From NCBI GenBank assembly GCA_030698495.1, contig JAUYKA010000008.1:78895-142894 (forward strand): a stretch of DNA of 64,000 nucleotides. The letters are read 5' to 3'. The position numbers were made by a program, and so were the translations under genes. The notes under the pieces are model-generated. The model saw only the letters and a program-made list of their open reading frames with translations. It did no database searches and was not told the origin of the DNA. This DNA is from a bacterium (lineage in GTDB: Bacteria; Patescibacteriota; Andersenbacteria; UBA10190). Below, one piece after another: positions 24,791 to 56,570 of the stretch (position 1 is its first letter; every line of letters starts with the position of its first letter).

Positions 24791-24966
24791 GTTAAATAAA
24801 ATTATTTGATGGAATGCAAAATGCAAACTGTAAACTGCAAAATGACAATGCAAAATTAAAAAATACTTGAGATGTTAATTTGATCGTAAAACATTATTAA
24901 TTTTAATCTGTTATTTTGCAGTTTGCAGTTTGCATTTTGAATTATTGGGGTTATGCAGGACTACGA

Positions 24967-26568
24967 TTAGTTAATAATCCCTCGCCTCACAATCTCTGGT
25001 ACTCGTCCTTCAATAAGTATCACTGTGTCGGGTTTAATGGTTTTTTTGACCGCTGTCAAAAGCTTTTTGGGAGAGGACATAAATGTAATTGTATTTTGTG
25101 ATTTAGCAGATTGGAATCCTTGTAATAAGTGTTTTTGATATGCTTTGCCGCTGATAAATATATCGGCACCGGATTGACCCAGCGCTTCGCCAAGATGCCG
25201 GTGAACAGCTGGAGCATCTACTCCTAATTCAATCAATGGCGTCATAATAACAATTTTGCTGGTTCCAGCGAATAATTTGAGATGATTGATAGCATTTATG
25301 ACTCCCACTTCGTTGGCAGAGTAGCTATCGTCTACGATTTGAACCGATTGCGATTTAGTAACAAGCTGCATGGTGCGCTCTACAGGGGTAAGTTGGGTCA
25401 GGGCGGAAAATATTTTGTCGGCGGGAACGCCAAGGACATAGGCAGTGGCGATTGCGGCCAGTACATTAGATAGTTGTCCTTGGCTTAAAAGAGAAATTGC
25501 TATCTGGGCACCAGCTGCATCTATATGAATCTGTGCTTGTAATGATGTCGGTAGGACTTTAATTTGATCGGCATAAATTTCGGCCGATCTTTCTTGGGAG
25601 TACCAAATAATCTTTTGGTTGGTTGTCTGGGCCTTGTTGGCGATGATTCTATCGTCGGCGTTGAGAATGGCGGTGCCGTTGGCGGGTAAATTATCAATTA
25701 ATTCCCATTTAGCAGCGGCTAGTTTTTCCTTGGTGCCGAATAATCCCAGGTGCTGGTTGCCGATGGCAGTAACTACGCCTATCTTCGGCTGGAGCAGGCG
25801 GCATAAGGCAGTGATTTCGCCGGCGCGGTAAGCGCCTGTTTCGGCGATATAGGTGCGGGAGTTGTCGTCGAGTCGATGAAGCATATCTTGCGCGACGGAT
25901 AGTTCGGAGTTGCGATGGTTGGCGGTGATAGTGTGATGGATGCCGGCTTGCGTTAAAATTTGATCGAGAAAATGTTTGGTGGATGTTTTACCGTAGCTGC
26001 CGGTTATGGCGATGACATTTAAACTTTTTAGACGGCGTCGCCGGGCGGTGGCTTGACTAATGATTTGACGTTTGCGCCAGTAAGTTAGGGCGTTGGTTAT
26101 CACGACAGATAACGGAGTCAAGAAAATGATGGCGATAATATACGTGCTCCACTGGAGAGCGGGAAGGATGTCAGAGATAAAGAAGAAAAAGTAATACGCC
26201 AAAGACAGGGCGGCCAGGGTTGTTATAAGGAGGAAACTTTTTATGGTGGGTTTGGGGCGATAAATGCCGCGATAGATGATGCGACCAGCGTGGTGGGCGA
26301 CAAGAAAAGCCATTTCGCTCCAGCCGAAGAGGTCGGCGGTGATGAGTTGGCCGGTTAAGGCAAGCAGCCAGCCAATATTGGAAAAAACGACTACACCGAG
26401 TAGTAAGCCGCGGTAGTTAAGCCACCATTCCTGGCTGCGGACGAGAGAAAATAGGCGATCCCAGCGGTATTCTTTGCGCTGCCATAGTTCGGCTTGGGAG
26501 GAGATGCTTAAAACGAGGAGGGGAAAGCCGATGACGGCGGCGATGATGTTTGGGGTGAGGAATGCCAT
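24967..26568 (-). CDS. murF: MurF-like Mur ligase with N-terminal 4-TM membrane domain in place of canonical domain 1
   Basis: 533 aa; residues 1-185 hydrophobic (4 predicted TM); P-loop ITGSYGKTSTKHF at about 190; C-terminal VDDSYSANEVG (MurF DDSYNANP-type) motif. Confidence 0.6.
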   Translation of the reverse strand: MAFLTPNIIAAVIGFPLLVLSISSQAELWQRKEYRWDRLFSLVRSQEWWLNYRGLLLGVVVFSNIGWLLALTGQLITADLFGWSEMAFLVAHHAGRIIYRGIYRPKPTIKSFLLITTLAALSLAYYFFFFISDILPALQWSTYIIAIIFLTPLSVVITNALTYWRKRQIISQATARRRRLKSLNVIAITGSYGKTSTKHFLDQILTQAGIHHTITANHRNSELSVAQDMLHRLDDNSRTYIAETGAYRAGEITALCRLLQPKIGVVTAIGNQHLGLFGTKEKLAAAKWELIDNLPANGTAILNADDRIIANKAQTTNQKIIWYSQERSAEIYADQIKVLPTSLQAQIHIDAAGAQIAISLLSQGQLSNVLAAIATAYVLGVPADKIFSALTQLTPVERTMQLVTKSQSVQIVDDSYSANEVGVINAINHLKLFAGTSKIVIMTPLIELGVDAPAVHRHLGEALGQSGADIFISGKAYQKHLLQGFQSAKSQNTITFMSSPKKLLTAVKKTIKPDTVILIEGRVPEIVRRGIIN

Positions 26569-26650
26569 AAAACTATATTATAACAGATTGGGCCGCAGTG
26601 TAGGGTAAATAATTTTGGTGCTGCTTAGGTTATTTGCTAACTTGTGTTTT

Positions 26651-26850
26651 CTCCGGCGAGTGTCACTTTTCGCGGCACCTACTCCCGGCGACACCAGCCG
26701 TCGCTCACGAGCTATGGCCGGCAAGGCATAGTGCCCGCTCCAGCGGCGGTCGCTACTCGACTAAAAGCCTGTCATCCCCGCCTTTTAGGCGGGGATGACA
26801 GGCTATTAGACGGTCGCCGGGAGCAGGTACCACGAGTGACACTCGCCGCG
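26651..26850. repeat. GC-rich nested palindromic element (family member 2, most complete copy)
   Basis: Nested inverted repeats: CCGGCGAGTGTCAC (26653-26666) / GTGACACTCGCCG (26836-26848); CTCCCGGCGAC / GTCGCCGGGAG; central 16-bp perfect hairpin GCCTGTCATCCCCGCC-tttta-GGCGGGGATGACAGGC. Confidence 0.6.
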
Positions 26851-26971
26851 GGAGCGCCAGTGATGTGGCAATATTTAAAAAAACCAAATACGCTTTTAGA
26901 CTTTCCTGATTTACACTGCTTGAAAGACAGAAGAAAACAATTGTTGCTGATTTTTCGAGATATTAGTTAGC

Positions 26972-27937
26972 TTGCCAACGAGAATGAAGTACACTATTCA
27001 TACAGACATGGATTCAAGACTGACAGTACAAGTTTTAGGATGGAATAGCGCCGGGGATTTGCCGGCGACTTGTGCGGCTTTGGAAAAAATTCCGGCTGAT
27101 GAGGTGATTATCCGTTATATTGATAATGCTTCCAGTGATGATTCGGTTGAAGTAGTGCAGCGATTGTTGCCTAACGCGGAGATTGTTGAGCTGGCGGAAA
27201 ATAAGGGTTTTTCTAGCGGGAATAATGAGGGTTTTATGAGATGTACAACGGATTTGGTTTTGGTTTTGAATCCGGATGTGGTGGTTGATTGGGAGGGCAT
27301 AAAGAAAGTAATGCGAGTGTTTGAAGATAATAAGGTGGCGGCGGCACAGGGGTTGCTATTGCGAGATGAGTCAGTGATTGACTCTGCGGGGATTGTTTTG
27401 TCACTCGCCATGAATGGGGTGGATCGAGGAGCGGGTGAGGTTAATCCGGGACAGTACAATGTTCGGTCGGAAGTTAAGGCGGTTACCGGCGCTTGCGGTT
27501 TATATCGAATGAAATCTTTGCGAGATGTGACGCATAAAGATGGCGAGATTTTTGATAACGATTTTTTTGCTTACAAGGAAGATGTTGATTTGGGCTGGCG
27601 GTTAAATCACGCGGGATGGAAGGTTGTTTATGAGCCGGTGGTTACCGGTGTGCATAAAAGAAAGCTAGGGCGTCAGGGCGCTATGGGGTGGGGAAGTGAC
27701 CCGGCAGAGTTTTACCGACGCTTGAGGTCTAAGCGCACGCGATATTCCTTGCGCAATTGGGTCTGGATGATTGTGAAAAATATTACCTTAAAAGAGGGTT
27801 TAAAACACGAGATTTTTATTGATGCGCGGCTATTATTATTTTTCTGCTTGTCGTTTTTATATCCGCCGCTAGTGACTGTTTGGCTAGAGATTATTTGGGG
27901 ATTAACGAAGATGGCAAAAAAGAGAAAGGCTGGTTAG
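26972..27937 (+). CDS. glycosyltransferase family 2
   Basis: 321 aa; ...RYIDNASSDDS..., LNPD, GT-A pattern; start may be internal Met at 27008. Confidence 0.65.
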   Translation: MPTRMKYTIHTDMDSRLTVQVLGWNSAGDLPATCAALEKIPADEVIIRYIDNASSDDSVEVVQRLLPNAEIVELAENKGFSSGNNEGFMRCTTDLVLVLNPDVVVDWEGIKKVMRVFEDNKVAAAQGLLLRDESVIDSAGIVLSLAMNGVDRGAGEVNPGQYNVRSEVKAVTGACGLYRMKSLRDVTHKDGEIFDNDFFAYKEDVDLGWRLNHAGWKVVYEPVVTGVHKRKLGRQGAMGWGSDPAEFYRRLRSKRTRYSLRNWVWMIVKNITLKEGLKHEIFIDARLLLFFCLSFLYPPLVTVWLEIIWGLTKMAKKRKAG

Positions 27938-28169
27938 TATGAATTTCAATTTTGTATGGTTAAGGTTGAATTTTCAATCTTCAATTTCCAATTTTCATAT
28001 AATAGCCAATGACCAATTACTAAATACACCCTAGAATTGAATGTGATTTACATGGTTGAAAATTGTTAAATTGTAATTTATATGGAAATTGGAAATTGTG
28101 CATTGGAAATTTGTCGCTATTGCGACATATAGTTATATATCCTAGTCTATAGCGTTAAGCGAGTAATTT

Positions 28170-28979
28170 ATGTCTAAGCTATCAATTATAATCGTTAATT
28201 ATAACACCGGCGCTCTGACACATTCCTGTGTGGAGTCTTTGTTGGCAGACAAGCTACCGGCGGGGACAGAAATTATTGTGGTTGATAATGCTTCGTCGGA
28301 TGAGAGTGTATCGTTTTTACGTTCGGATTTTCCGGAAATAAGAGTAATTGTAAATCATAAAAATAAGGGTTTGGCTTACGGGGTGAATCGCGGTATCGCG
28401 GCGGCCAACGGTAAATATTATTTGTTTTTGAATCCGGACATTATCGCTCTGCCAGGCGGAGTGGGGACGTTAGTCGATTTTATGGATAGGAATCAAAAAG
28501 TTGGCGTGGCGGGAGGAAAACTATTGTCGCCAAACGGCAAGCTGCAGTACTCGACTTTCCGTTTTTACACGCCGCGGACAATATTGTCGCGGCGCACCTG
28601 GCTGGGACAGACAAAGCGGGGACAAGAGATTGAGGATACCTTCCTGATGAAAGATTTTGATCACGAGAGCGTGCGCGATGTGCAGTGGTTGATGGGGTCT
28701 TGTTTGATGGTGAGAGCCGAAGCGGTACGCGCGGTCGGCGGCATGGATGAGCGCTTCTTTTTGTATTTCGAGGATGTGGATTGGTGCCGGCGTTTTTGGG
28801 AGACAGGCTGGCGGGTAACTTACGTGCCGCAGGCTAACTTTTCTCATTTCCATCAGCAGAGTAGTCGGCAAAATTCCTTGTTTGGCATTATTATTAATTG
28901 GTCGACCAGGGAGCATATCTGGTCGGCAATTAAATATTTTTGGAAATACCGGGGAAAAGAGATACCGGGCGTTGATTAG
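28170..28979 (+). CDS. glycosyltransferase family 2
   Basis: 269 aa; SIIIVNYNTG ... VDNASSDES ... NPD motif. Confidence 0.7.
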   Translation: MSKLSIIIVNYNTGALTHSCVESLLADKLPAGTEIIVVDNASSDESVSFLRSDFPEIRVIVNHKNKGLAYGVNRGIAAANGKYYLFLNPDIIALPGGVGTLVDFMDRNQKVGVAGGKLLSPNGKLQYSTFRFYTPRTILSRRTWLGQTKRGQEIEDTFLMKDFDHESVRDVQWLMGSCLMVRAEAVRAVGGMDERFFLYFEDVDWCRRFWETGWRVTYVPQANFSHFHQQSSRQNSLFGIIINWSTREHIWSAIKYFWKYRGKEIPGVD

Positions 28980-29145
28980 ATAAGATTGGCATTGTGAAAA
29001 GTAAAATTTGGTTAGAGATGTGATGTTTTGCTCAAATTCCAAAATCCAAATAACAAATTTCAAATAAAAACCCAAATGTCCAATTACAAATTTATATAAA
29101 TTATAGAATATATAAGGTGGTTTTAAATGAGTTATAATATCGGAC

Positions 29146-31270: not shown

Positions 31271-31451
31271 CTTAATGACAAAGTTCAAATGTCAAATGAC
31301 AAATTAAATCCAAAAATTTAAACGTCAAAAGATTCGTTTTTTGATATTTGTAATTTGACATTTGGATTTTGAAATTATTTGTATTTAGCTTATGGATGGC
31401 TTGAATGGCATAGTAGGAGCTGGAGTATAATTATTCGGGTATTATATAATT

Positions 31452-34024: not shown

Positions 34025-34229
34025 ATTGAGCTGTGGTTGTAAAGAATATTAACTCTTGATGATTTTTTTGTGTTTATATGAATAGAATAATTTTCAATTA
34101 TTAATTTCCAATTTTCAAACCTTTACGCCACCTGCTAAGAGTTACGCTGTTGTACGTAACATTTGGAAATTGGGTAATTGGGATTTAAATGGAAATTGGA
34201 AATTGATTAATTTGGTATAGAATGTCTTT

Positions 34230-38127: not shown

Positions 38128-39168
38128 ATGAATGAAACAATAAAGTTTAACGAAATAACCGCTTCTTTACTGGGAGTGCTGGACGCACGCTCTCAAGACA
38201 TATTAACGCGTCGTTATGGTTTGAACAGCGAGGAGAAAGAGACGCTGGAAAGCATTGGCCGCGAGTATGGCATTACCAGAGAAAGAGTGCGCCAACTGCA
38301 AACGCAGGCGAAAAAAGTGGTTATAGAGATGAAGGAAGCATATATGCCGGTTAGTGCTGTTTTTAATGAAGTATTCTCGCGCCACGGGGGTATTATGGTG
38401 GAATATTATGCCGTGAGTGTTCTTCGAGATTCAGCGCCTAGTGAAAAGCCCCGGTCAAATGTAGTATCGTTTTATTTGGACTTACTGCCTAATTTCGAGT
38501 ATGTCAGCCGTGATGCTGATTTTGTGCCTCATTGGCGGCATAATGCGTTGGTTAATGAGCGAGGAAGAGAAGCTGTGGCATGCGTTAAAGACATACTGCA
38601 AAAAGAGAAACATCCTATTGGCGAAGATGAATTGGTGCGAAAAGTCAGACAGGAAGGGTTATGGGAGGAAAGTGTCTTACCCCAAGATCATTTAATGGCG
38701 CAGTTATCGGCCAGCAAGCTTATTCGTAAAACTCCGTTTGGCGAGTGGGGTCTGGAAGATTGGCCGGAGACAAGTCCGCGCGGTGTCGGTGATAAGGCAT
38801 ACGCGGTATTGAGACGTCACGGAGAGCCGGAGCATTTTACCAGAATTTCAGAGATGATAAACGAAGCTAATTTTGATCACAAGCGCGCGAATGCCCAGAC
38901 GGTTCATAATGAATTGATTAAGGATGATCGCTTTGTCCTGGTCGGGCGCGGGTTATATGGTTTGAAAGAGTGGGGGTATGTTCCCGGTACCGTAGCCGAC
39001 GTGATCGAATCCTTACTTAAAGAAGCGGGAAAACCGTTGTCACGGGAAGAAGTTATTGACCGCGTACTGGCTCAACGACAGGTAAAAAAGAACACTATTG
39101 TGTTGGGTTTGCAAAACAGTGACAGATTTGTCCGAACCGACGACAGCCGATATACAGCGAAAGGATAG
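38128..39168 (+). CDS. DNA-binding protein: N-terminal sigma-70 region-4-like HTH + two HARE-HTH-like winged-helix domains
   Basis: LDARSQDILTRRYGLNSEEKETLESIGREYGITRERVRQLQ (sigma r4); two repeats of the pattern A..VL...G.P.HF..I...I.........TV...L..D.RFV..GRGLYGLKEW (residues about 215-270 and about 290-340). Confidence 0.5.
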   Translation: MNETIKFNEITASLLGVLDARSQDILTRRYGLNSEEKETLESIGREYGITRERVRQLQTQAKKVVIEMKEAYMPVSAVFNEVFSRHGGIMVEYYAVSVLRDSAPSEKPRSNVVSFYLDLLPNFEYVSRDADFVPHWRHNALVNERGREAVACVKDILQKEKHPIGEDELVRKVRQEGLWEESVLPQDHLMAQLSASKLIRKTPFGEWGLEDWPETSPRGVGDKAYAVLRRHGEPEHFTRISEMINEANFDHKRANAQTVHNELIKDDRFVLVGRGLYGLKEWGYVPGTVADVIESLLKEAGKPLSREEVIDRVLAQRQVKKNTIVLGLQNSDRFVRTDDSRYTAKG

Positions 39169-39224
39169 ACATTAGTAAATAGCAAGAGACGACCAACAGA
39201 CTGCAGACTAACGGCTGCAGTCTG

Positions 39225-40517
39225 TTGTATAATACCGACATGATATTCCTTTGGACCGCATTGGCACAATTGGGCGGTGTTATTGTCGCCTGGGGATGGC
39301 TGCTATTTTTGTTTTTGGCTTTATGGGTAGCCTGGGAGACTTATTTGTTTATCAAGCACGTTGATTATACTAATGCAATTAAGTGGACCTTTCTGGAAAT
39401 AACGGTGCCGGAGGATACACCGCAGACACCGAAGGCGATGGAGAATGCTTTTGATGTGTGGGGCGGTATTCATAAAGATCCGGATTTGATTGAAAAATAT
39501 TTTGAGGGATATTTTCTGGCTTGGTATTCCTGCGAGATTCAGTGCAAGCGAGATCAAGTACGTTATATTCTGGTGGTACCGACAGTGCACGCCAAATTTT
39601 TTGAAGGAGTAGTTTACGGACAATACTCGGCGGCACATGTTACGGAAGTAGAAGATTACACGCAGGAATATTCTTTTCGCGATTTGGAAAAAAAATATGA
39701 TTTATATGGCACGGAGATTGTGCTGGTTAAAGACGATTACTATCCGATTCGAACTTACCGCGAATACGAAGACACTTTTGCGGAAGATGATAAGTACGTT
39801 GATCCGCATCAGGCCCTAATTGAGGCGTACACGAATATTGGTGAAGGAGAGCAGTTTTGGGTACAAGTGCTGGTTAAGCCGGTGGCGGGGGATGACATAC
39901 AGAAGTGGGCGGATAAGGGGCAGGATAAAATTGCGGAAATTTCCGGGCAAAAGAAAGAAGTGCCGGAAGGAATTTGGGCGCAATTAAGTGGTTTACTGAC
40001 TAAGCTGCCGGGAGAGATCCTGGGGGCGTTCGTTAACGGTCCGACAACCCCGGAGGATAAGAAGAAAGAAGCGCTGGAACTGCGTTTTCATAATCCGGCG
40101 CAAGACGCGGAAATGAAGGGGATACTGCTAAAGGTATCGCATTCGGCATATAAGACTAAGCTCCGGTTGATTTACATTGCGCCAGTGGGAAAGCTGGATA
40201 AACCCAGTATTTCTAAAGCAATCGGCGTGTTTAAACAGTTTAATACTTTTCATCTTAATTCTTTAAAGCCGGATCCGGCGACGAAAACTAACGGGCCGAA
40301 TTATGTGCTGAAACAATCGCGCCGACACTTCCGTAAAAAATCGGTGCTGCTGAACTATCAATGGCGAGATTTTTGGGGAGATGAGAGCGGACAAATGTTG
40401 GTGGCGGAAGAGTTGGCGACGTTGTATCATTTGCCGGTTAAGTACCTAAAGTCGCCGGTCGTACGTCATTCTCCTTCCGGCTTAGGCAGCCCGCCGGATA
40501 ATTTACCTTACGTCTAA
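39225..40517 (+). CDS. membrane protein (2 N-terminal TM helices + large soluble domain), partner of downstream TraD/VirD4-like ATPase
   Basis: 430 aa; MIFLWTALAQLGGVIVAWGWLLFLFLALWVAW TM hairpin; 10-nt gap to ATPase gene. Confidence 0.4.
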   Translation: MYNTDMIFLWTALAQLGGVIVAWGWLLFLFLALWVAWETYLFIKHVDYTNAIKWTFLEITVPEDTPQTPKAMENAFDVWGGIHKDPDLIEKYFEGYFLAWYSCEIQCKRDQVRYILVVPTVHAKFFEGVVYGQYSAAHVTEVEDYTQEYSFRDLEKKYDLYGTEIVLVKDDYYPIRTYREYEDTFAEDDKYVDPHQALIEAYTNIGEGEQFWVQVLVKPVAGDDIQKWADKGQDKIAEISGQKKEVPEGIWAQLSGLLTKLPGEILGAFVNGPTTPEDKKKEALELRFHNPAQDAEMKGILLKVSHSAYKTKLRLIYIAPVGKLDKPSISKAIGVFKQFNTFHLNSLKPDPATKTNGPNYVLKQSRRHFRKKSVLLNYQWRDFWGDESGQMLVAEELATLYHLPVKYLKSPVVRHSPSGLGSPPDNLPYV

Positions 40518-40527
40518 CGGTTCTTTT

Positions 40528-42267
40528 ATGCCCGAAGACAGTGAAAATGAAATAAACATTTTAGGCCAGACTAATTTTCGCGGTCAGCACCGGCAGTTTG
40601 GCATTTATCCCGATGATAGGCGCCGACATGTTTACGTGGTTGGGAAAACGGGAGTGGGCAAGTCCACCCTGTTGGAAAACATGATTGCGCAGGACATTAT
40701 TCATAACAAGGGGGTTTGTCTGGTTGATCCGCACGGGGATACGGTGGAACGTCTGCTTAACGCGGTGCCGCCGAGCCGGATTAACGACGTGGTGTATTTT
40801 GATCCGTCCGATGTGGATTGGCCGGTGGCATTTAATGTACTGGAGGCAGTAGATCCGGCTTATAAATATCTGGTGGCGTCGGGGCTAGTCAGCTCGTTGA
40901 AGAAAATGTGGGCGGATTCCTGGGGGCCGCGGCTGGAGTATATTTTGCGCAATACGATTTTAGCGTTACTGGATTATCCTTCCAGCACAATTTTGGGTAT
41001 TCTGCGCATGCTTTCCGATAAGACTTACCGCAAAAAAGTGGTTGATAAAATTTCCGATCCGGTAGTGAAGAGTTTTTGGACAAATGAATTCGCCAATTAT
41101 AACGAGCGCTTCCGCACGGAAGCTATTTCGCCTATTCAGAACAAAGTGGGTCAGTTGTTAAGCTCGGCGATTATCAGAAATATCGTGGCGCAACCCAAGA
41201 GCACTATTGATATGAAGGATATCATGGACAATGGCAAGATTTTACTGGTCAATATGTCAAAAGGAAAAATCGGTGAGGATAATTCCGGTTTGCTGGGAGC
41301 AATGATTATTAATCGGATTCAGCTGGCGGCCATGGACAGAGCCAGCATCCCCGAAGAAGAAAGGCGAGACTTTTACCTGTACGTGGATGAGTTCCAAAAC
41401 TTTGCCACGGAGTCTTTCGCGGATATTTTATCGGAAGCCAGAAAATACCGGCTGAATTTGACGGTGGCGCATCAATATATCGCGCAGATGGAAGAAGAAG
41501 TGACTGATGCCGTTTTCGGCAACGTCGGGACGATTGTCGCCTTTCGTGTAGGCGCGGCCGATGCTGAGTATTTAGAACAAGAATTCGCGCCAGTGTTTAC
41601 CCAAACCGATTTGGTTAACCTGGATAAATATAACGCTTATTTAAAATTAATGATAAACGGCATTAGCAGTAAGCCTTTTAGTATGCAGGCACTGCCGCCG
41701 GTGATGGAAAACTTCGGCAAAGGAGAAGTGGTAAGAATGGTGTCGCGCGAGCGTTTTGGCCATAAAAGGGAGATCGTGGAGGATAAGATCAGGCGCTGGA
41801 GCGGTATAGTACTGGGTGAGGCCGGAGAAGAACAAAGTGCACCGCAATATTCACCGCGATCATACAGCGGCGGCGAAAGAAGACCGGGACGCGGCCGACA
41901 AACGTCGACAGAAAGGCATGAGGCTAGGCAAGCGCCAGCGCAAATTAACAAGGAACAGTTGGCAGATGTGGTGCTGCCTATTTCGGCTAAACCAATTACG
42001 GATTTGGCGGCGGTGTTATCGCAGGGGCCGAACACAAGCAGTTCGACGCGAAGAGGCAGCGCGCGCGGTTTTGAAGTGATATGTCGCCGATGCGGCAAGA
42101 AGACCGAGGTGCCTTTTGATCCTGATCCGGCCAAGCCGGTTTATTGTAAGGAATGTTTCCAAATCGTAAGGCAAGAAAAAGCGGGGGAACGAGAGCGGAA
42201 AGTAAATACGGTTGACGCCAGGGTATCTAAACGATTTAGCGGTCCGCAACCGCCGGCATTGCCATGA
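40528..42267 (+). CDS. TraD/TraG/VirD4-like (type IV coupling-protein-like) P-loop ATPase with disordered basic linker and C-terminal CxxC...CxxC zinc ribbon
   Basis: VVGKTGVGKSTLLENMIAQDI ... LVDPHGD (Walker A + TrwB-like block); FYLYVDEFQNFAT (Walker B); RKYRLNLTVAHQYIAQM (TraG-D_C-like); C-term CRRCGKKTEVPFDPDPAKPVYCKEC. Confidence 0.55.
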   Translation: MPEDSENEINILGQTNFRGQHRQFGIYPDDRRRHVYVVGKTGVGKSTLLENMIAQDIIHNKGVCLVDPHGDTVERLLNAVPPSRINDVVYFDPSDVDWPVAFNVLEAVDPAYKYLVASGLVSSLKKMWADSWGPRLEYILRNTILALLDYPSSTILGILRMLSDKTYRKKVVDKISDPVVKSFWTNEFANYNERFRTEAISPIQNKVGQLLSSAIIRNIVAQPKSTIDMKDIMDNGKILLVNMSKGKIGEDNSGLLGAMIINRIQLAAMDRASIPEEERRDFYLYVDEFQNFATESFADILSEARKYRLNLTVAHQYIAQMEEEVTDAVFGNVGTIVAFRVGAADAEYLEQEFAPVFTQTDLVNLDKYNAYLKLMINGISSKPFSMQALPPVMENFGKGEVVRMVSRERFGHKREIVEDKIRRWSGIVLGEAGEEQSAPQYSPRSYSGGERRPGRGRQTSTERHEARQAPAQINKEQLADVVLPISAKPITDLAAVLSQGPNTSSSTRRGSARGFEVICRRCGKKTEVPFDPDPAKPVYCKECFQIVRQEKAGERERKVNTVDARVSKRFSGPQPPALP

Positions 42268-42338: not shown

Positions 42339-43025
42339 ATGAGGACAAGTAATCCTAACGAAAAATTGGTAGTTGATAAGCCGTTTGATTTTGCGGAGGA
42401 CGCTAATTGGCGAATTTTTCGTATAATGGCGGAGTTCATCGAGGGGTTTGAGTTCTTGGCGCCGTTACGCAAGGAAGTGACTTTTTTTGGATCAGCAAGG
42501 CTCAAAGAAGATTCGTATTGGTACAAACAAGCGCAACGGCTTGGTTATTTATTGGGTAAGAATGGTTTTACGGTAGTTACCGGTGGGGGGCCGGGGATAA
42601 TGGAAGCGGGTAACCGGGGCGCTTACGAAGCGGACGGACAGTCTATTGGGCTAGATATTGAACTGCCGACAGAACAAAGGCGCAATCCTTACATACGCAA
42701 AGGAATAGGTTTCCATTATTTCTTTACCAGAAAAGTAATGCTGTCGGCTTCAGCGCAAGCTTATGTGTTTTTTCCGGGAGGATTCGGTACGTTGGATGAG
42801 TTTTTCGAAATGGTGACGCTGCAGCAGACAAAGAAGATGGAGAACGTGCCAATTGTTTGCGTGGGACATGATTTTTGGGAGGGGTTAGATGACTGGGTGA
42901 AGAAAAATTTGGTTGAGAAATATAAAACGATTAATAGTGATGACAGCTCAATATATACGGTGGTAGATTCGGCAGAAGAAGCATTTGCTATTATCAAAGA
43001 CACAAAGGAGCGGAAGTATTTCTGA
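42339..43025 (+). CDS. LOG-family (TIGR00730) Rossmann-fold nucleotide-binding protein / cytokinin riboside 5'-monophosphate phosphoribohydrolase-like
   Basis: VTGGGPGIMEAGNRGA and PGGFGTLDE motifs. Confidence 0.8.
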   Translation: MRTSNPNEKLVVDKPFDFAEDANWRIFRIMAEFIEGFEFLAPLRKEVTFFGSARLKEDSYWYKQAQRLGYLLGKNGFTVVTGGGPGIMEAGNRGAYEADGQSIGLDIELPTEQRRNPYIRKGIGFHYFFTRKVMLSASAQAYVFFPGGFGTLDEFFEMVTLQQTKKMENVPIVCVGHDFWEGLDDWVKKNLVEKYKTINSDDSSIYTVVDSAEEAFAIIKDTKERKYF

Positions 43026-43121
43026 TCAGCGAGATAAGATATATAAGCCAGATAAGTCAATAAGCTGATAAGTTCTTATCTTGCTGATTTAGCTTATCTT
43101 GCTTATCTTACTGATATACAT

Positions 43122-44993
43122 ATGAGTGCAAGAATATCTAGCAACGACCTACGAACAAAATATCTGGATTTTTTTGCTAGTAAAGGGCATAAGGTAATTG
43201 CCTCGGCGCCGCTAGTGCCGGAAAATGATCCGACGACTTTGTTCACCGGTTCGGGTATGCAGCCGATGGTGCCGTATTTATTGGGACAAAGACACCCTTT
43301 GGGTAATCGGATAGTTGACGTGCAAAAATGTTTTCGGGCGGTTGATATCGATGAAATTGGCGATAATCGCCATACTTCTTTTTTCGAAATGTTAGGCAAT
43401 TGGTCTCTGGGTGATTATTTCAAAAAAGAACAAATTCCTTGGGTGCTGGAATTTTTAACGGAGGTATTGGGTTTAAATGCCAATCAGTTATACGTCACAG
43501 TTTTTCGCGGACGAGAAGATTTGAATATTCCCCGGGATGAGGTCAGTGCCGATATTTGGCGCGATGTTTTTCAGAAGAAGAGAATAGACGCTAAGGTGGT
43601 AGATTGGCCGGAAAAAGACGGGTTGCAAGGAGGGCGTATATTTTATTATGACGAAACAAAGAATTGGTGGAGCCGGTCGGGCGCACCAGCTGATATGCCG
43701 GTTAATGAGCTGGGCGGACCGGATAGCGAAATTTTTTGGGATTTTGGCGAAAATTTAGGTTTGCACGAAAAGTCGCCGTGGAAAGATAAGCCGTGTCATG
43801 TTAATTGTGATTGCGGTCGGTTTTTGGAGATTGGCAACAGTGTGTTTATGGAGTTTATTAAAACGGATAAAGGGTTCGCCGGCTTACCGCAAAAGAATAT
43901 AGATTTTGGCGGCGGTCTGGAAAGAGTGGCGGCGGCGTTAAATGATAATCCTGATATTTTTAAAATTGATTTGTTTGCCGATATCATTGCCTATGTTCAG
44001 GAGAAGAGTGGAGAAATATACGGACAAGATATTGAGTTGACAAATGCTTTTCGGGTAATTGCCGATCATGCGCGCGCAGTGACATTTTTAATTGCCGACG
44101 GGGCGGTGCCGGCTAATAAAGATCAGGGTTATTTTACACGCCGCTTGATCAGGCGAGCGGTTAGGTTTGGTTATACCCTTGGTTTGGAGGATCGTTTTCT
44201 GGCTGATATTGCCCGGATTATTAGCCGACAATACGAGAACGTATATCCGGCCATAGAGAAAAATATTGATGTTATTGCCGCCGAGATTACAAACGAAGAA
44301 AATAAATTTCGCAAAACATTAAAGTCAGGGCTGGAAAAGATCGAACAGTATTTGCAAAATACGGATAATATTAACGGGAAGCAGGCGTTTGAAATGTATG
44401 CCACTTTCGGGTTTCCGATAGAGATGTTGGTGGAAGAAGCGGTGGAGCGAGGATGCCAGGTTGATATTGACGGGTTTAAAAAAGAACTGAACAAACACAG
44501 GGATTTATCACGGACGGCCAGCGCGGGTAAATTCAAGGGCGGCTTGGCTGATCATGGCGAGATGACAGTAAAATATCATACGGCAACACATTTATTGCAC
44601 CAATCTTTGCGAACGGTACTCGGAGATCAGGTTGAGCAAAGAGGAAGCAATATCACGGCCGAGCGTTTGCGTTTTGATTTTTCTTATCCTAATAAGTTGA
44701 ACAACGATCAGTTGGCCGGGGTAGAGACTTTGGTAAACGAGAAAATTCAAGACGATTTGCCCGTTCAAAAAGAGGAGGTGACGGTAGCGGAAGCAAAAGA
44801 AGCGGGGGCGATCGGGTTGTTCGCGGCTAAATACGGAGAGAAGGTGAGTGTTTATTCAATCGGAGATTTTTCCCGGGAAATTTGTGGGGGACCGCACGTA
44901 GAGCGCACGGGGATGTTGGGACGTTTTAAGGTTATAAAGGAAGAGTCTGCCGGGGCGGGGGTACGACGGATAAAGGCAGTGCTAAAAAACTAA
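43122..44993 (+). CDS. alaS: alanine--tRNA ligase, short form (catalytic + editing domains, no C-Ala domain)
   Basis: N-terminus DLRTKYLDFFASKGHKVIASAPLVPENDPTTLFTGSGMQ; editing HTATHLLHQSLR and CGGPHVERTGMLG motifs; ends right after editing domain at 623 aa. Confidence 0.85.
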   Translation: MSARISSNDLRTKYLDFFASKGHKVIASAPLVPENDPTTLFTGSGMQPMVPYLLGQRHPLGNRIVDVQKCFRAVDIDEIGDNRHTSFFEMLGNWSLGDYFKKEQIPWVLEFLTEVLGLNANQLYVTVFRGREDLNIPRDEVSADIWRDVFQKKRIDAKVVDWPEKDGLQGGRIFYYDETKNWWSRSGAPADMPVNELGGPDSEIFWDFGENLGLHEKSPWKDKPCHVNCDCGRFLEIGNSVFMEFIKTDKGFAGLPQKNIDFGGGLERVAAALNDNPDIFKIDLFADIIAYVQEKSGEIYGQDIELTNAFRVIADHARAVTFLIADGAVPANKDQGYFTRRLIRRAVRFGYTLGLEDRFLADIARIISRQYENVYPAIEKNIDVIAAEITNEENKFRKTLKSGLEKIEQYLQNTDNINGKQAFEMYATFGFPIEMLVEEAVERGCQVDIDGFKKELNKHRDLSRTASAGKFKGGLADHGEMTVKYHTATHLLHQSLRTVLGDQVEQRGSNITAERLRFDFSYPNKLNNDQLAGVETLVNEKIQDDLPVQKEEVTVAEAKEAGAIGLFAAKYGEKVSVYSIGDFSREICGGPHVERTGMLGRFKVIKEESAGAGVRRIKAVLKN

Positions 44994-45129
44994 AAACGTA
45001 AAGCGTAAAACTCAAAACAACAACGAAAAAGTAAAAATATTCAGTGGCCGATATATGGAGTTTTTAGTGGTTATTTTAGTTTGAAGTTTTTCGTTTTAAG
45101 TTTAAGTGATTTGTCTATATACTTAGGTT

Positions 45130-46479: not shown

Positions 46480-46490
46480 GGCGAAATTAA

Positions 46491-46551
46491 CTCCCGTGCC
46501 CAGCCGTCGCTAAAGCTATGGCCGGCACGGCGCGCACTAAGGCTGTTGGCC
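46491..46551. repeat. GC-rich palindromic element (family member 3, short copy)
   Basis: CTCCCGTGCCCAGCCGTCGCTAAAGCTATGGCCGGCACGG aligns to 26682-26726 (CTCCCGGCGACACCAGCCGTCGCTCACGAGCTATGGCCGGCAAGG). Confidence 0.55.
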
Positions 46552-47086: not shown

Positions 47087-47133
47087 AAGATCAATTTTCA
47101 ATTATCAATTTCCAATTTCCAAACATTAAGAAT

Positions 47134-50735: not shown

Positions 50736-50860
50736 GTGTCAGAAAATTTCTAATTTCTAATAACTAATTACTAATAAAATTTTAAATGTTTAACGCCAAA
50801 TTTTAAGCATTGGGCATTTTATTAGACATTAGTAATTAGGATTTAGTAATTACAGCCAAT

Positions 50861-52195: not shown

Positions 52196-52245
52196 AGGGG
52201 GACTATGCCTTATTGTAGCATTTTTGTAAATGAGAGGGATGCGAT

Positions 52246-52357
52246 CGAGGATGGCTGCCTATTTGGTTTTGACGCCAAATTTCTCATGCTTATTTTTACG
52301 TTAAGGTATTCCGCCGGCACGGCAATGGCGTCAAAACCAAATAGGCAGCCATCCTCG
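52246..52357. repeat. 31-bp perfect inverted repeat flanking a 50-nt spacer (GC-rich palindromic element family member 4)
   Basis: CGAGGATGGCTGCCTATTTGGTTTTGACGCC (52246-52276) is the exact reverse complement of 52327-52357; spacer contains GCCGGCACGGC also present in copy 3. Confidence 0.7.
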
Positions 52358-52443
52358 GACTATGTTAATTTTACCCTTTGCATTTACGAAAATCTGGGGT
52401 GAAGAGAACGGGGGTGACTTGATTTTGGGGGTTGGTTGACGGT

Positions 52444-53706
52444 ATGCTTAAATTCATGTCGCAATTTGTCATCCAAGGCGGGCGGAAGCTATCCGGGGTT
52501 ATTCCAGTTTACGGGTCAAAGAACGCGGCGCTGCCTTTGCTGGCGGCCAGTCTTTTAACGGAAGAGGAAGTGATTTTGCATAATATTCCGGAGATATTGG
52601 ATGTTAAGAAGATGTTGGAAATTATGCAGGCGATGGGAGTGAGTGTGATTAGTGAAGGAAACGAGTGCCGGATAAAAGCGGAGAAGATTAACGAGAAGCA
52701 GGTACCGCGGGATAGGGTGGGACACCTGCGCGGTTCCGTATTGTTACTGGGTGCTTTATTGGTCCGATGTAAGCGGGTGGATCTGCCGATGCCGGGAGGA
52801 GACGTTATCGGTGCGCGACCGATTGAAGCACATTTGGATGGCCTGGCGCAGTTGGGTGCTAAAATAGACGTCAACGACAGCGGCGTGAGCGTGGACGGAT
52901 CGGACATGAAAGCCGGCGAAGTGGTGCTAAAAGAGTTTTCCGTTACGGCGACGGAAAATATTTTGTTGGCCGCGTCGCGTTTGCCGGGAAAAACAACTAT
53001 TTATATTGCGGCGGCCGAACCGCACGTGGCGGCGTTGGCGGAGCTGCTGAATCAGATGGGGGTGAAAGTTTCAGGAGCTGGAACGCATACTATTATCGTC
53101 GAGGGTAAAGAAGAATTAAGCGGAGCAGAGTTTACAAATATTCAGGATATGTTGGAAGCCGGTTCGTTTATTTTATTGGCGGCGGCGACGGGTTCAGCTG
53201 TTACCGTGCAAAACGTGCCGCTGTTTGATTTGCGCCTTTTTTTAAAGAAGCTGGCGGATATTGGGGTGGATTTTCAGATTGACGATCATAACGTAATGAT
53301 TAAGCCGTCTCGCTTGAAAGCTTTTAAGATACAGACTCTGCCGTATCCGGGCATGCCTACCGACCTACAGGCAATGTTCGCGGTAGTGGCAACGCAGGCA
53401 CATGGAGCCAGTTTGATTCACGACCCTATGTACGAAGGGCGGTTTAAATATATTGATGAGCTGATTAAAATGGGGGCCAACGCCACGATGTGTGATCCGC
53501 ATCGCGTTATAATCGAAGGGCCGACGCGATTGCGCGGACGCCATATAAAAAGTCTGGATATTCGTTCCGGCGTTACTTTGATTTTGGCCGGTCTGGCGGC
53601 GGATGGCGAAACAGTGATCGACGGTGCGGAAATTATTGACCGAGGATACGTAAATTTAGAAGAAAGGTTAAAGGATATCGGCGCGGATATTATTAGACGA
53701 GGATAA
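52444..53706 (+). CDS. murA: UDP-N-acetylglucosamine 1-carboxyvinyltransferase
   Basis: MLKFMSQFVIQGGRKLSGVIPVYGSKNAALPLLAASLLT matches MurA N-terminus; EPT-family length; ATG at 52444 preferred over upstream TTG. Confidence 0.85.
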   Translation: MLKFMSQFVIQGGRKLSGVIPVYGSKNAALPLLAASLLTEEEVILHNIPEILDVKKMLEIMQAMGVSVISEGNECRIKAEKINEKQVPRDRVGHLRGSVLLLGALLVRCKRVDLPMPGGDVIGARPIEAHLDGLAQLGAKIDVNDSGVSVDGSDMKAGEVVLKEFSVTATENILLAASRLPGKTTIYIAAAEPHVAALAELLNQMGVKVSGAGTHTIIVEGKEELSGAEFTNIQDMLEAGSFILLAAATGSAVTVQNVPLFDLRLFLKKLADIGVDFQIDDHNVMIKPSRLKAFKIQTLPYPGMPTDLQAMFAVVATQAHGASLIHDPMYEGRFKYIDELIKMGANATMCDPHRVIIEGPTRLRGRHIKSLDIRSGVTLILAGLAADGETVIDGAEIIDRGYVNLEERLKDIGADIIRRG

Positions 53707-53710
53707 CTAT

Positions 53711-54721
53711 ATGAGAGTGACTAGAAGAATAGCAATTGATTTAGGTACCACTAATACTTTAATGTATGTGCCTAAACAGGGGATTGTATTAAACGAACCG
53801 TCAGTAGTGGCGGTTTCAACGGACGAAAAAGCGGTGCTGGCGGTGGGTAATGAGGCTAAGGATATGATCGGACGCACGCCGGAATCAATTGTAGCGCATC
53901 GACCACTGCGCGACGGCGTGATTGCCGATTATCGGGTAACACAGGCGATGCTGCGTTATTTGATTCAGAAAACAGGTGCGTCGATTCGTTTCTTGCGGCC
54001 AGAGGTATTAATTTCCGTGCCGGCCGGTATTACCAGTACGGAGCGGCGAGCGGTGGTTGACGCTACTTTGTCGGCCGGAGCCAGATCGGTTTTCTTAATT
54101 AAAGAACCTATCGCCGCGGCGATAGGGGCGGGCATACCAATTGGGGAGAGCGCAGGACATATGATAGTGGATATCGGCGGCGGGACAACGGAAGCAGCCG
54201 TGATTTCTTTGGGTGGTATTGTCACCGCTCATTCCGCCAGAGTAGGAGGTAATCGATTTGATGAAGCGATTACCGATCATATCAGAAAACGCTACGGGGT
54301 AGTAATTGGCGAGCAAACGGCGGAAAAAGTTAAGATCAGTATCGGGTCGGCCATACAGCAGGAAGCACAGGAACGGTTAACTATTCGTGGTCGCGATATG
54401 GCTTCTGGCTTGCCTAAGGAAACAGTTATTTCTTCCCAGGAAGTAACCGAGGCCCTTAGGGAATCGCTGGATGAAGTGTTGCTGGTGATTAAGCACGTGC
54501 TGCAAAATACGCCGCCGGAGTTAGCGGCGGATGTTATTGATACCGGGATCGTAATTAGTGGTGGAGGAGCGTTAATGAAGAATATCGACCAGCTGATTTC
54601 CCGGGCGATTCAAGTGCCTACGTATATAGCGGACGATCCGCTGGTGTGCGTGGTGAAAGGAGCAGGCGCGGCACTGGAAAATTTGGAGCGGTATAAAAGG
54701 AGTGTTTTGTTGAGTAGGTAG
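53711..54721 (+). CDS. mreB: rod shape-determining protein MreB
   Basis: IAIDLGTTNTLMYV ... VDIGGGTTE ... actin-fold phosphate motifs. Confidence 0.9.
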   Translation: MRVTRRIAIDLGTTNTLMYVPKQGIVLNEPSVVAVSTDEKAVLAVGNEAKDMIGRTPESIVAHRPLRDGVIADYRVTQAMLRYLIQKTGASIRFLRPEVLISVPAGITSTERRAVVDATLSAGARSVFLIKEPIAAAIGAGIPIGESAGHMIVDIGGGTTEAAVISLGGIVTAHSARVGGNRFDEAITDHIRKRYGVVIGEQTAEKVKISIGSAIQQEAQERLTIRGRDMASGLPKETVISSQEVTEALRESLDEVLLVIKHVLQNTPPELAADVIDTGIVISGGGALMKNIDQLISRAIQVPTYIADDPLVCVVKGAGAALENLERYKRSVLLSR

Positions 54722-54923
54722 ACAAATATATACGTTTTTTGAGATTTAAAGGTAAAACGTAAAACGAAAAAGGCAAAACAACATCATAAAAACTAAAAAC
54801 ATAACGACAAAAATTCGTTGTTATTTTTTGCTTTTTCTTGTTGTTGTAAGTTTTACGTTTTAAGTTTTACGTTTTTGATTATTCTACTTGCTACGTGCTG
54901 CTAGTGTCAGTTATCATGCCTAG

Positions 54924-56063
54924 ATGTCTGAAATTGAGCAGCTGAAAGTGGCTTTAGTGCATGACGAGCTTACCCGCCGGGGCGGGGCGGAGATTGTACT
55001 CGAAGAGTTAGCGATGATTTTTCCGCAGGCTGATATTTATGCGCTATACGCCGGGCGGCCGATGATGAGTATTAATGGCCGCAAGAGGAGCGTGCATACT
55101 TCTTTTCTGCAGCACTGGCCGTTGTGGTGGCGCCGTCATCCTAAAAGAGTATTACCGCTTTTGCCGTACGCGGCCGAGCAATTGGATTTATCCGGATACG
55201 ATGTTGTTATAAGTTCGGCCAGCGGGTTTGTTAAAGGAATTATTACCAGGGCGGATATTCCACATGTATGCTACTGCCACACGCCGACAAGATATTTATG
55301 GGAAGACGCGGGAGCCGCCACAAGGCGGGCGCCGGTTTGGCAGAGATGGCCGGGCAGGATACTGCAACATTATTTACGTCTGGCCGATTTTGCCGCGGCC
55401 CAGCGGGTGGATTATTTTATCGCCAATTCCCGCTGGACTAAGCAGAGGATAAATACTTATTATCGGCGCGAGGCCAAGGTAATTTATCCGCCGATAGATA
55501 CGTCATTTTTCACGCCGGCATACGAGAGTGTATCCGGGCGCCGGAAAAAATATTTCTTATGCGTCGGCCGACTGACACCGAGTAAGAATTTTGATCAGGC
55601 AATTGCCGTTGGTGAGAAATTACGCTTGCCCCTGGTTATTGCCGGAAGCGGTTACGACGAGAGGCGTTTACGAAAATTGGCGGGACCATACACAACTTTT
55701 GCCGGACGGGTTGATAGAGAAGAGTTACGCGACTTATATCGTAACGCGCGGGCATTATTACAGCCAGGCGCGGAAGATTTTGGTATGGCGGCGGCCGAGG
55801 CAGCCGCTTGCGGTACACCGGTTGTTGCCTATGGTGTGGGCGGTATTAGGGAAATTGCCGGAAAGCAAACGGCACAATTGTATGCGCAACCAACGGTGGA
55901 AGCACTGGCCGAAGCGATACGTAAATTTATCGTGCGAGAAAATAAATTTCGGCCGGAGCTTTGTCAGCAGGAGGTTCTAAAGTTTGGCTACAGCCGTTTC
56001 AAGCAAGAAGTAACGCATTTTGTAAAAAATGTTATTGCTAATGGTGTTGGCAAGACGGTATAA
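54924..56063 (+). CDS. glycosyltransferase family 4
   Basis: 379 aa; EDFGMAAAEAAACGTPVVAYGVGG motif. Confidence 0.7.
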   Translation: MSEIEQLKVALVHDELTRRGGAEIVLEELAMIFPQADIYALYAGRPMMSINGRKRSVHTSFLQHWPLWWRRHPKRVLPLLPYAAEQLDLSGYDVVISSASGFVKGIITRADIPHVCYCHTPTRYLWEDAGAATRRAPVWQRWPGRILQHYLRLADFAAAQRVDYFIANSRWTKQRINTYYRREAKVIYPPIDTSFFTPAYESVSGRRKKYFLCVGRLTPSKNFDQAIAVGEKLRLPLVIAGSGYDERRLRKLAGPYTTFAGRVDREELRDLYRNARALLQPGAEDFGMAAAEAAACGTPVVAYGVGGIREIAGKQTAQLYAQPTVEALAEAIRKFIVRENKFRPELCQQEVLKFGYSRFKQEVTHFVKNVIANGVGKTV

Positions 56064-56071
56064 TATAAATA

Positions 56072-56407
56072 GTGAAATATTCTCTGCAAGCGGAAAATTT
56101 AACAGTGACAGAAGCGGACAGGCTGTTATTAGAGAAAAAGATTGGCCGTCTTAAGAAACTGCTGCAGCCACCTTATATGGCGGATATTAGGTTTTGGCAT
56201 GACACTCACCATATCAAGGGTGAGGTTGTTAACTGTGTGATGAACGTTAAAGAAGGGAAGAGAGTATTTCATAGCGAGCGCGTCGGCGACAGTATGCAGA
56301 AGGCATTGGACGAATGTTTGCAGGCGATTAAGAGCGAGATTGCAAAAAATCACGGGAAGGGCAAGAGGCGTCGGTTTTGGTGGAGTAAGTTGGCGAAAGA
56401 AACGTAA
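56072..56407 (+). CDS. hpf: ribosome hibernation promoting factor / RaiA (S30AE family)
   Basis: 111 aa; MKYSLQAENLTVTEADRLLLEKKIGRLKKLL ... HSERVGDSMQKALDECLQAIKSEIAK matches HPF beta-alpha-beta-beta-beta-alpha pattern. Confidence 0.65.
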   Translation: MKYSLQAENLTVTEADRLLLEKKIGRLKKLLQPPYMADIRFWHDTHHIKGEVVNCVMNVKEGKRVFHSERVGDSMQKALDECLQAIKSEIAKNHGKGKRRRFWWSKLAKET

Positions 56408-56570
56408 AACTGAAAGCGAAAAACTTAAAATAACAACTTAAAACTCAAAACAGTTGTCAAGCTGGCGGTGGGAATTTTTTGTTTTATACTGTTGTTTTTC
56501 GTTTTGCGCTTTACGCTTTAAGTTTTCTGTGCTTTTGACAAGCGCCTATTTAGAAGTAAGGTGTAGTATA

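Follow-up and report, generated by a model that had tools for sequence, protein, structure and literature searches.

Inverted pairs of heptanucleotide repeat arrays between the genes of a Patescibacteria bacterium

What are the AT-rich simple-sequence tracts that occupy many spacers in part of an Andersenbacteria genome (Patescibacteriota; GenBank assembly GCA_030698495.1, contig JAUYKA010000008.1, positions 78,895 to 142,894), and do they serve the genes on either side? The stretch analysed, here called the window, is 64 kb long, with a GC content of about 47%, a strongly positive GC skew, and genes that lie nearly all on the + strand. A sequence-only reading of the tracts between 24.8 and 56.5 kb had described a local 6–9-mer that is reiterated and then repeated in reverse complement, and had proposed non-canonical terminators, protein-binding arrays or miniature mobile repeats. 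All ten tracts that it listed exist where it placed them, and an inverted-repeat search and arm alignment bear out their description as AT-rich inverted simple-sequence spacers. What it missed is the uniform 7-nt period and the membership of the tracts in known intergenic heptanucleotide repeats. Their identity is secure: they are heptanucleotide arrays of the STRR type, organised here as inverted pairs. As to function, we tentatively favour a role of the paired arrays as weak bidirectional terminators or insulators, or as 3′-end hairpins, between leaderless transcription units, a reading of the sequence to which we give somewhat less than an even chance.

Heptamer arrays and their inverted pairing

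Tandem Repeats Finder (TRF) assigned a period of 7 to 15 arrays between 24.8 and 56.5 kb, with 3.6–7.6 copies each (positions 24813, 24915, 27969, 28083, 31274, 31340, 34163, 44985, 45074, 47091, 50745, 50828, 54748, 54850 and 56400), and a period of 9 only at the pair 43024/43075 (43.0 kb). A lag-k identity scan (35-nt sliding window, identity of at least 72%) found nine lag-7 segments, a single lag-9 segment and nothing at lags 4, 5, 6, 8, 10, 11 or 12. The repetition described earlier was thus confirmed by both methods, whereas the range of unit sizes was not, the unit being uniformly 7 nt with a single 9-nt exception. Units mostly follow the pattern NNNAAAA (TGCAAAA, TGACAAA, CGTAAAA, CTTAAAA, TTGGAAA) or its complement, and at least seven unit types occur within 32 kb.

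Nine spacers each contain a pair of arrays that are inverted copies of one another, with arms of 33–64 nt (10–36% GC) and loops of 2–75 nt in the arm alignment. Pooled over these nine hairpins, there were 336 Watson-Crick positions, 75 mismatches and 18 gaps, or about 80% complementarity, and an unbiased inverted-repeat search recovered seven of the nine (pairs I1, I2, I6, I7, I10, I14 and I16). The orientation was inverted in 9/9 two-arm spacers (binomial p = 0.004). An automated partner test (within 250 nt) counted eight inverted, no direct and four single arrays in the window, and five inverted and one direct at other loci of the Candidate Phyla Radiation (CPR). Three arrays are single arms without a hairpin, at 29036–29092, at 47088–47130 and, as a weak tract, at 42.27 kb; the second had been called a half-site, and it is indeed a single arm without a partner.

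The comparison with shuffled controls that had been suggested for the folding energies was run with 200 dinucleotide shuffles per hairpin. Seven of the nine hairpins did better than essentially all of their shuffles, being equalled by only 0–2 of 200 (z −2.9 to −7.3). Rfam gave no matches at its gathering threshold, and at E ≤ 1 the only matches were to generic models of miRNA-precursor hairpins, with scores far short of it. Six hairpins have strongly skewed arms, and in every one the A-rich arm precedes the T-rich arm (p = 0.03), the other three being AT-balanced; in relatives the count was four A-to-T and one T-to-A. Because this polarity reads identically from both strands, it cannot be due to replication-strand bias, and RNA of either strand would have a U-rich 3′ arm.

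The elements are listed below, with z denoting the folding comparison unless stated otherwise. The single array at 29036–29092 and the CAGACTG hairpin at 39194–39228 were absent from the earlier list.

24811–24947: heptamer hairpin of TGCAAA(A/C) units, TRF period 7; arms 24813–24862 and 24894–24943 (pair I1, 84% complementary), loop 31 nt; minimum free energy −40.1, z −7.3, 0/200 shuffles; between a Mur-ligase gene (minus strand, stop 24967) and a DegT-like gene (minus strand, start 24790)
27941–28113: class-1 hairpin of TTTTCAA/TTTCCAA units; arms 27969–28002 and 28078–28111 (pair I6, 85% complementary), loop 75 nt; z −2.9; carries a 29-mer shared with two other loci, with 2 mismatches; after a GT2 gene (stop 27937) and before a second GT2 gene (start 28170)
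29036–29092, + strand: single A-rich array of CCAAATA/CAAATTT-type units without an inverted partner; spacer lag-7 identity 0.43, TRF periods 14 and 26, z +0.8; between the GT2 gene and scpA
31273–31377: TGACAAA/TGTCAAA heptamer hairpin; arms 31273–31316 and 31337–31377 (pair I7); z −5.5, 0/200 shuffles; AT skew +0.41 in the left arm and −0.35 in the right; begins 2 nt past the D-Ala-D-Ala carboxypeptidase stop codon, with mraY downstream (start 31452)
34086–34216: class-1 hairpin (pair I16), z −5.0; 29-mer present with 1 mismatch; between murD (stop 34024) and ftsW (start 34230)
39194–39228: short GC-richer hairpin of CAGACTG CAGACTA ... CAGTCTG units with a 13-bp perfect stem; spacer lag-7 identity 0.49 (z of identity −4.2), folding z −4.1; after the sigma-factor gene
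43024–43107: sole hairpin of 9-nt period, GATAAGNNN / CTTATCTTG; arms 43024–43056 and 43075–43107; best lag 9 (0.55), z −3.8; overlapping the LOG-family gene at its stop codon, with 14 nt left before the alaS ATG
44985–45107: class-2 hairpin of CGTAAAA/CTAAAAA units; arms 44987–45030 and 45061–45103 (pair I14, 71% complementary); z −1.8; AT skew +0.75 and −0.59; alaS stop codon inside the first unit
47088–47130, + strand: class-1 single arm between rpmJ and rpsM in the ribosomal-protein operon, z +0.2; 29-mer with 1 mismatch; without partner arm, hairpin, or −10 box before rpsM
50741–50853: AT-balanced heptamer palindrome of CTAATTA/TAATTAG units; arms 50745–50793 and 50803–50851 (pairs I2 and I11); z −5.5, 0/200 shuffles; centred between the convergent stop codons of rpsI (50735) and a PEGA-domain gene (50861), 9 nt to each
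54744–54880: class-2 hairpin; arms 54748–54811 and 54814–54874 (pair I10); z −3.8; an 8-bp stem followed by a T6 run at its centre (54801–54824); between mreB (stop 54721) and a GT4 gene (start 54924)
56400–56530: class-2 hairpin; arms 56400–56450 and 56475–56525; z −1.4; between hpf, whose stop codon (56405–56407) lies inside a repeat unit, and secA (true start 56571)

After correction of over-extended open reading frame (ORF) starts, the arrays all lay in spacers, overlapping at most the last few codons or the stop codon of a gene. The longest-ORF TTG starts of the DegT-like gene (24853) and of secA (56454) run through arrays, and the real starts are the ATG codons at 24790 and 56571. Of the window's 25 spacers that are ≥40 nt long and either co-directional or convergent, 12 carried arrays, and none was found in its first 24 kb; the statement that most spacers are built in this way therefore does not hold for the window as a whole. 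Coding repeats were ruled out, since the repeat length is not divisible by three and each frame contains stop codons. CRISPR was also ruled out, the 7-nt units being contiguous and without spacers, and no tRNAs were found in the window.

The assembly GCA_034372665.1 and two independent Logan assemblies (SRR13727534 and SRR26726065) contain contigs that are 100% identical to the window where they overlap it and that together span 39.7–56.9 kb, hairpins included. Because these assemblies are identical over the hairpins, the tracts are not an assembly artefact. The same identity means that no strain variation or copy-number polymorphism can be read from the three.

Sub-families, known counterparts and distribution

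Some of the arms are related across spacers. The word TTTCCAATTT occurs five times against 0.48 expected, and the 29-mer AATTTTCAATTATCAATTTCCAATTTTCA is found at 27969, 34089 and 47093, in one orientation and with at most 2 mismatches (0 expected), which indicates that arm sequence was copied between spacers. Class 1 arms (28.0, 34.1 and 47.1 kb) match arms elsewhere as well as or better than their own partners, and so do those of class 2 (45.0, 54.8 and 56.4 kb). The unique hairpins at 24.8, 31.3, 43.0 and 50.7 kb have their best match in their own partner arm, as expected for local inverted duplication. The sub-families described earlier hold up, though unevenly: the three class 2 members, which lie within 12 kb, are only ~68% identical overall. 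Loops are unrelated among same-class elements in the window, where the arms alone, not whole elements, are common. At another CPR locus, L096, which belongs to a distant Patescibacteria relative, two whole hairpin elements (16497–16625 and 18864–18995; ~130 nt, A-rich/T-rich) hardly differ from each other, even in the loop, and each fills the interval between a stop codon and the ATG that follows. This is evidence that copying of whole elements can occur as well.

Heptanucleotide repeats of this kind have precedents. STRR heptanucleotides of Calothrix PCC 7601 are cited in PMC4692102, and (TTCAAAA)n/(TTTTGAA)n repeats were described in Nostoc 7120 (bioRxiv 10.1101/2022.06.06.494920). The STRR, Nostoc and Microcystis repeats of cyanobacteria are like the present arrays in their 7-nt units, their ~3–8 tandem copies, their intergenic location near starts or promoters, and their occasional inverted pairing; several units, including NNNAAAA-like ones, coexist in one genome, and no function has been settled for them either. 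The STRR families consist of a few genome-wide units in large cyanobacterial genomes, whereas the Patescibacteria genome is probably small, its arrays mostly pair to form long hairpins, and the unit varies between spacers. The criterion of few units may not be strict, since Microcystis was reported with "a range of repeating heptamers" (PMC4679880).

Two further heptamer families can be compared. The TAACTGA direct repeats of marine Beggiatoaceae, some Cyanobacteria and Bacteroidetes (PMC4679880) are also overwhelmingly intergenic, often end beside a start codon or overlap the end of the upstream ORF, contain stop codons in their units, and have a patchy phylogenetic spread; binding by cold-shock-domain proteins was proposed for them (PMC4679880). 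They use one unit genome-wide in 169 direct sets versus 1 indirect, with a proposed action in the 5′ leader, unlike the many units and mostly inverted pairs found here. The GGGAATC and GGGGA(C/T)T simple sequence repeats (SSRs) of Xanthomonas and Nostoc likewise show an intergenic heptamer excess with some inverted pairs in convergent spacers, and they vary extensively in length and sequence between close relatives (PMC4692102). Those repeats are G-rich and were studied for G-quadruplex formation, whereas the present units are AT-rich and cannot form G-quadruplexes. In the literature searched, we found no report of heptamer repeats in Patescibacteria.

Among relatives the arrays were distributed unevenly. 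The syntenic locus L001 had seven lag-7 arrays in 20 kb, with units quite unlike those of the window (CTACTTG, CTACAAC), some forming hairpins and some being single arms; its density was 0.35 per kb, and that of the window 0.14 per kb. Three other syntenic relatives (L045–47) had no arrays by the lag scan. In 80 further Patescibacteria loci (1.05 Mb), arrays were rare overall, with 26 segments found, concentrated in L096, L049, L057, L061, L080 and L121 and with mostly NNNAAAA-like units. The alanyl-tRNA synthetase (AlaRS) of the window is 100% identical to a protein that NCBI assigns to a Candidatus Andersenbacteria MAG, a taxon placed in the Parcubacteria group of the Patescibacteria group. 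The nearest relative by AlaRS was 65% identical, and at this distance (~65% AlaRS) the nearest relatives provide no orthologous hairpins for a covariation comparison. Walking outwards from the window added only about 1.4 kb of sequence. A scan of viral contigs with a class-1 16-mer gave 59 single matches, probably mostly chance. Among the unrelated contigs that it hit by chance, the IMG/VR contigs L179, L182 and L135 (42–70% GC) were seen to hold dense heptamer arrays (AATTGAC, TAGTGGA, GGATTGC and others), including inverted pairs, and such arrays in contigs classed as viral mean that the phenomenon is widespread outside CPR.

A possible role between transcription units and its rivals

The position of the hairpins lends circumstantial support to a role in termination or insulation. 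All of them follow a stop codon. In 5/9 the left arm overlaps the stop codon or begins within 10 nt of it, and the distances from stop codon to hairpin range overall from overlapping to 61 nt; the right arm ends 13–74 nt before the next start codon. Divergent spacers carried arrays in 0/6 cases in the window, compared with 12/25 of the others (hypergeometric p = 0.037). In three array-free relatives, GC-stem plus T-run terminators stand directly after rpsI, at the site held here by the palindrome 50741–50853. No consensus terminator of that type was found in any array-bearing spacer; canonical terminators elsewhere in the window are located at 19736–19762 (+) and 17079–17095 (−). Bidirectional intrinsic (Rho-independent) terminators share with the hairpins a place after stop codons and an A-tract, stem and T-tract symmetry on both strands. 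Their stems are short and GC-rich, whereas the hairpins here are not of that form, with stems of 30–60 bp that are about 75% AT and ~80% paired.

The other side of the spacer is occupied by promoter-like sequence. A TATAAT-like hexamer (at least 5/6 matches) ends 6–8 nt before the start codon in 11/34 spacer-preceded genes, against a background of ~0.4 per position. The starts listed with such a −10 box are 11688, 26568 (−), 29146, 31452, 34230, 42339, 45130, 54924, 56072 and 59772 (−), and include the genes after the 31.3, 34.1, 45.0 and 54.8 kb hairpins. Shine-Dalgarno motifs were not visible upstream of most genes. Because −10 boxes abut the starts and Shine-Dalgarno motifs are mostly absent, leaderless transcripts are suggested, and the organism probably uses leaderless mRNAs widely. 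The typical order within a spacer is stop codon, A-arm, loop, T-arm, −10 box (sometimes with a −35 hexamer) and ATG. The arm itself supplies a −35-like hexamer at 34.1 kb (TTGGAA) and at 24.8 kb (TTGCAT). At 34.1 kb it lies in the right arm; a TAGAAT box follows after 16 nt and leaves 6 nt to the ftsW ATG (promoter-like site 34196–34223). The 54.8 kb hairpin is followed by TTGCTA-N18-TATCAT (promoter-like site 54888–54917), ending 6 nt before the GT4 ATG.

The A-rich arm (NNNAAAA)n followed by the T-rich arm (TTTTNNN)n gives, read from either strand, a 100–170-nt imperfect AT-rich hairpin with a U-rich 3′ arm. Replication slippage favouring 7-nt units may have generated the arrays, whole arrays may have been duplicated in inverted orientation within one spacer, and arms may then have been copied among nearby spacers to yield classes 1 and 2. 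Array growth would be halted by the stop codon at one end and by the next promoter at the other, with rapid turnover. The hairpins could then provide weak, cumulative, factor-independent and bidirectional termination that separates adjacent transcription units, or protect RNA 3′ ends, and many downstream genes would be transcribed without a leader from the −10 box abutting their start codon. Single-arm arrays such as that between rpmJ and rpsM would be non-terminating relatives inside operons.

Several observations weigh against this role. The hairpins at 45.0 kb (z −1.8) and 56.4 kb (z −1.4) were no more stable than their shuffles. With relaxed criteria for a terminator core (stem ≥6 bp with ≥2 GC pairs, and ≥6 T in 8), one was found in 1/18 strand-sites (54801–54824) against a shuffle mean of 0.67, and in 8/9 hairpins no discrete U-run follows the stem, the 3′ arms themselves being U-rich. 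Arm mismatches comprised 46 transversions, 19 changes that are G–U-compatible in the sense RNA and 10 in the antisense, with no wobble bias, and the RNAalifold covariation term for class 2 was unfavourable (+4.44, 3 sequences). Across 85 CPR loci, arrays occurred in 8% of divergent, 10% of convergent and 10% of co-directional spacers as delimited by crude longest-ORF gene calls, and 49/55 arrays in relatives were single arms. Canonical terminators were equally frequent in array-rich (24/160, 15.0%) and array-free loci (50/346, 14.5%). Between the window and L001, about 4 of 14 syntenic spacers carried arrays in both by our count, against 3.5 expected, an overlap no greater than chance. Finally, several hairpins end only 13–26 nt before essential genes (ftsW, alaS), where a strong terminator would need a promoter built into the arm.

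The earlier claim that the tracts sit where terminators or insulators are expected, after a GT2 gene, murD, alaS, rpsI, mreB and hpf, was accurate as to these genes, all supported by Pfam. As to function it is favoured by the stop-to-promoter location, the A-to-T polarity and the rpsI-site terminators of three relatives, and disfavoured by the pairing statistics, the scarcity of terminator cores and the equal use of divergent spacers in relatives.

The strongest competitor is that the arrays are neutral or selfish by-products of slippage in AT-rich non-coding DNA, template-switch inversion and homogenisation by gene conversion, with no selected role and a spread that stops only at coding or promoter sequence. 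We consider this rather unlikely. In its favour, the arrays are patchy among relatives (dense in the window, L001 and L096, and absent from L045–47 and from most of the 80 metagenome loci), their positions are not conserved with the syntenic L001, and across CPR they enter spacers of every orientation. Arm and loop lengths are highly variable, there is neither a wobble nor a compensatory signal, and the overlap with stop codons looks as if all free space were being filled. A general excess of heptameric SSRs in bacteria has also been attributed to polymerase slippage (PMC4679880, PMC4692102). Neutrality offers no explanation for the A-then-T polarity (6/6 here, 4 to 1 in relatives), and it is strained by the ratio of inverted to direct partners (13 to 1), by the array-free state of the window's six divergent spacers, and by the hairpin that takes the position of a relative's terminator; none of these is decisive.

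Alternatively, the arrays could be bound by a protein, for instance of the cold-shock-domain type, that covers 7 nt of single-stranded RNA or DNA, so that each heptamer would take up one molecule. Once on the U-rich arm, it would melt the hairpin and thereby adjust read-through into the next gene or the translation of that gene. Some cause is required for the strict 7-nt period. The T-rich arms resemble the T-rich heptamers reportedly bound, one protein to each, by B. subtilis CspB as summarised in PMC4679880, and experiments in Nostoc suggest that heptamer repeats affect expression through a partner yet to be named (bioRxiv 10.1101/2022.06.06.494920). Single arms directly upstream of starts (47088–47130; L001 7494–7534) would suit a role in 5′ leaders. 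The units differ by locus and by genome, so a binder would have to be nearly sequence-blind, and Pfam showed no candidate among the window proteins; we hold this explanation to be improbable. In a more far-reaching form, which we rate no higher, the 7-nt register would be a genome-wide cis-code read by an abundant single-strand-binding protein, for example one with a cold-shock domain. If that were true, protein coating the U-rich arms would unfold the hairpins, and dozens of terminator-promoter junctions would be toggled between insulating and reading through, a global and condition-dependent remodelling of operons in a minimal-genome CPR bacterium with few classical regulators.

Still less probable is a movement of the hairpins as miniature inverted-repeat transposable elements (MITEs), or as elements like repetitive extragenic palindromes (REP) and REPINs, by a transposase encoded elsewhere in the genome. 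REP and its mosaic form BIME, REPIN and MITE palindromes also occur as dispersed intergenic sub-families, mostly in co-directional or convergent spacers, with proposed terminator or mRNA-stabilising roles (PMC3333891, PMC3116915); the arms here have an internal 7-nt period, and their copies do not form discrete units. Inverted terminal arms around variable cores, the 29-mer common to three loci in the same orientation, the three class 2 members within 12 kb and the two nearly identical L096 elements all fit mobility. Against it, no consistent target-site duplications were found (candidate flanking duplications of 0–4 nt, all different, at fuzzy element ends), and the Pfam scan of the window proteins gave no transposase and no gene for a RAYT (REP-associated tyrosine transposase) in the 64 kb. 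Sharing within the window is restricted to arms, class 2 reaches only ~68% identity, and four hairpins are unique, matching only their own partner arm. The mobile repeats proposed earlier are thus favoured by the shared 29-mer and the L096 pair and opposed by the lack of a consistent duplication and of a transposase in the window. A tandem 7-nt substructure is, to our knowledge, not a feature of known MITEs.

Least probable of all is a promoter role at the DNA level, in which the T-rich arm would act as an UP-element-like or bent AT tract, sometimes supplying the −35, for the downstream leaderless promoter, and the A-rich arm likewise for antisense or neighbouring transcription: the right arms do give TTGGAA or TTGCAT at −35 distance from −10 boxes at 34.1 and 24.8 kb, the 54.8 kb right arm does lie just upstream of the −35-like TTGCTA, and −10 boxes do cluster 6–8 nt before starts, but the convergent spacer 50741–50853 holds a full palindrome with no downstream promoter to serve, the window's divergent promoter spacers are array-free, and a phase of 7 nt is out of step with the helical repeat that planar bending requires.

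Surrounding features and significance

The genes flanking the arrays are supported by Pfam matches to a Mur ligase, DegT, two GT2 glycosyltransferases, ScpA/B, D-Ala-D-Ala carboxypeptidase, MraY, MurD, FtsW, MurG, MurC, a sigma factor, a TraG-like ATPase, LOG, AlaRS, the infA-rpmJ-rpsM...rpsI cluster, MurA, MreB, GT4, HPF and SecA. The sigma factor (38128–39168), a single protein with sigma-70 region 4 and HARE-HTH, comes before a DUF8128 protein and a TraG/VirD4-like coupling ATPase that has a treble-clef zinc finger (39225–42267). This sigma/DUF8128/TraG block is syntenic in all four relatives and adjoins the dcw cluster. Positions 1–24000 form a mixed-strand glycosyltransferase and polysaccharide-synthesis island (GT1, GT2, GT4, Wzy_C, Polysacc_synt, FemAB), with a patch of 0.58 GC at 19354–19817.

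A second class of stable hairpins, unrelated to the heptamer arrays, was also observed. Long hairpins are located at 26660–26845 (GC 0.63, z −12.0), 59250–59420 (GC 0.62, z −10.9) and 52236–52367 (GC 0.48, 32-bp perfect arms, z −10.4). The sequence GCCCGCYCCAGCGGCGG is common to the 26.7 and 59.3 kb elements, and AGCTATGGCCGGCA to those at 26.7 and 46.5 kb (46490–46535). These hairpins overlap the predicted ORFs 26644–26970 and 59266–59772, which have no Pfam match and may not be genes, and Rfam returned only a sub-threshold generic hairpin match for them.

Arrays such as those described here have practical consequences for CPR annotation, as ORF callers extend starts through them (24853 and 56454) and terminator predictors miss such sites; the short contigs of this genome in public assemblies (2.9–10.9 kb) may also reflect breaks at repeats during assembly. 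Cyanobacteria have provided examples of intergenic heptamer repeats since 1990, and Beggiatoaceae and Xanthomonas were added later. Two long-standing questions about them, why the unit is 7 nt and whether such repeats are junk or serve as punctuation for genes, could be taken up in the compact system that dense arrays in a small, gene-dense Patescibacteria genome offer. Should the hairpins prove to terminate transcription, an AT-rich periodic class would be added to the types of bacterial terminator.

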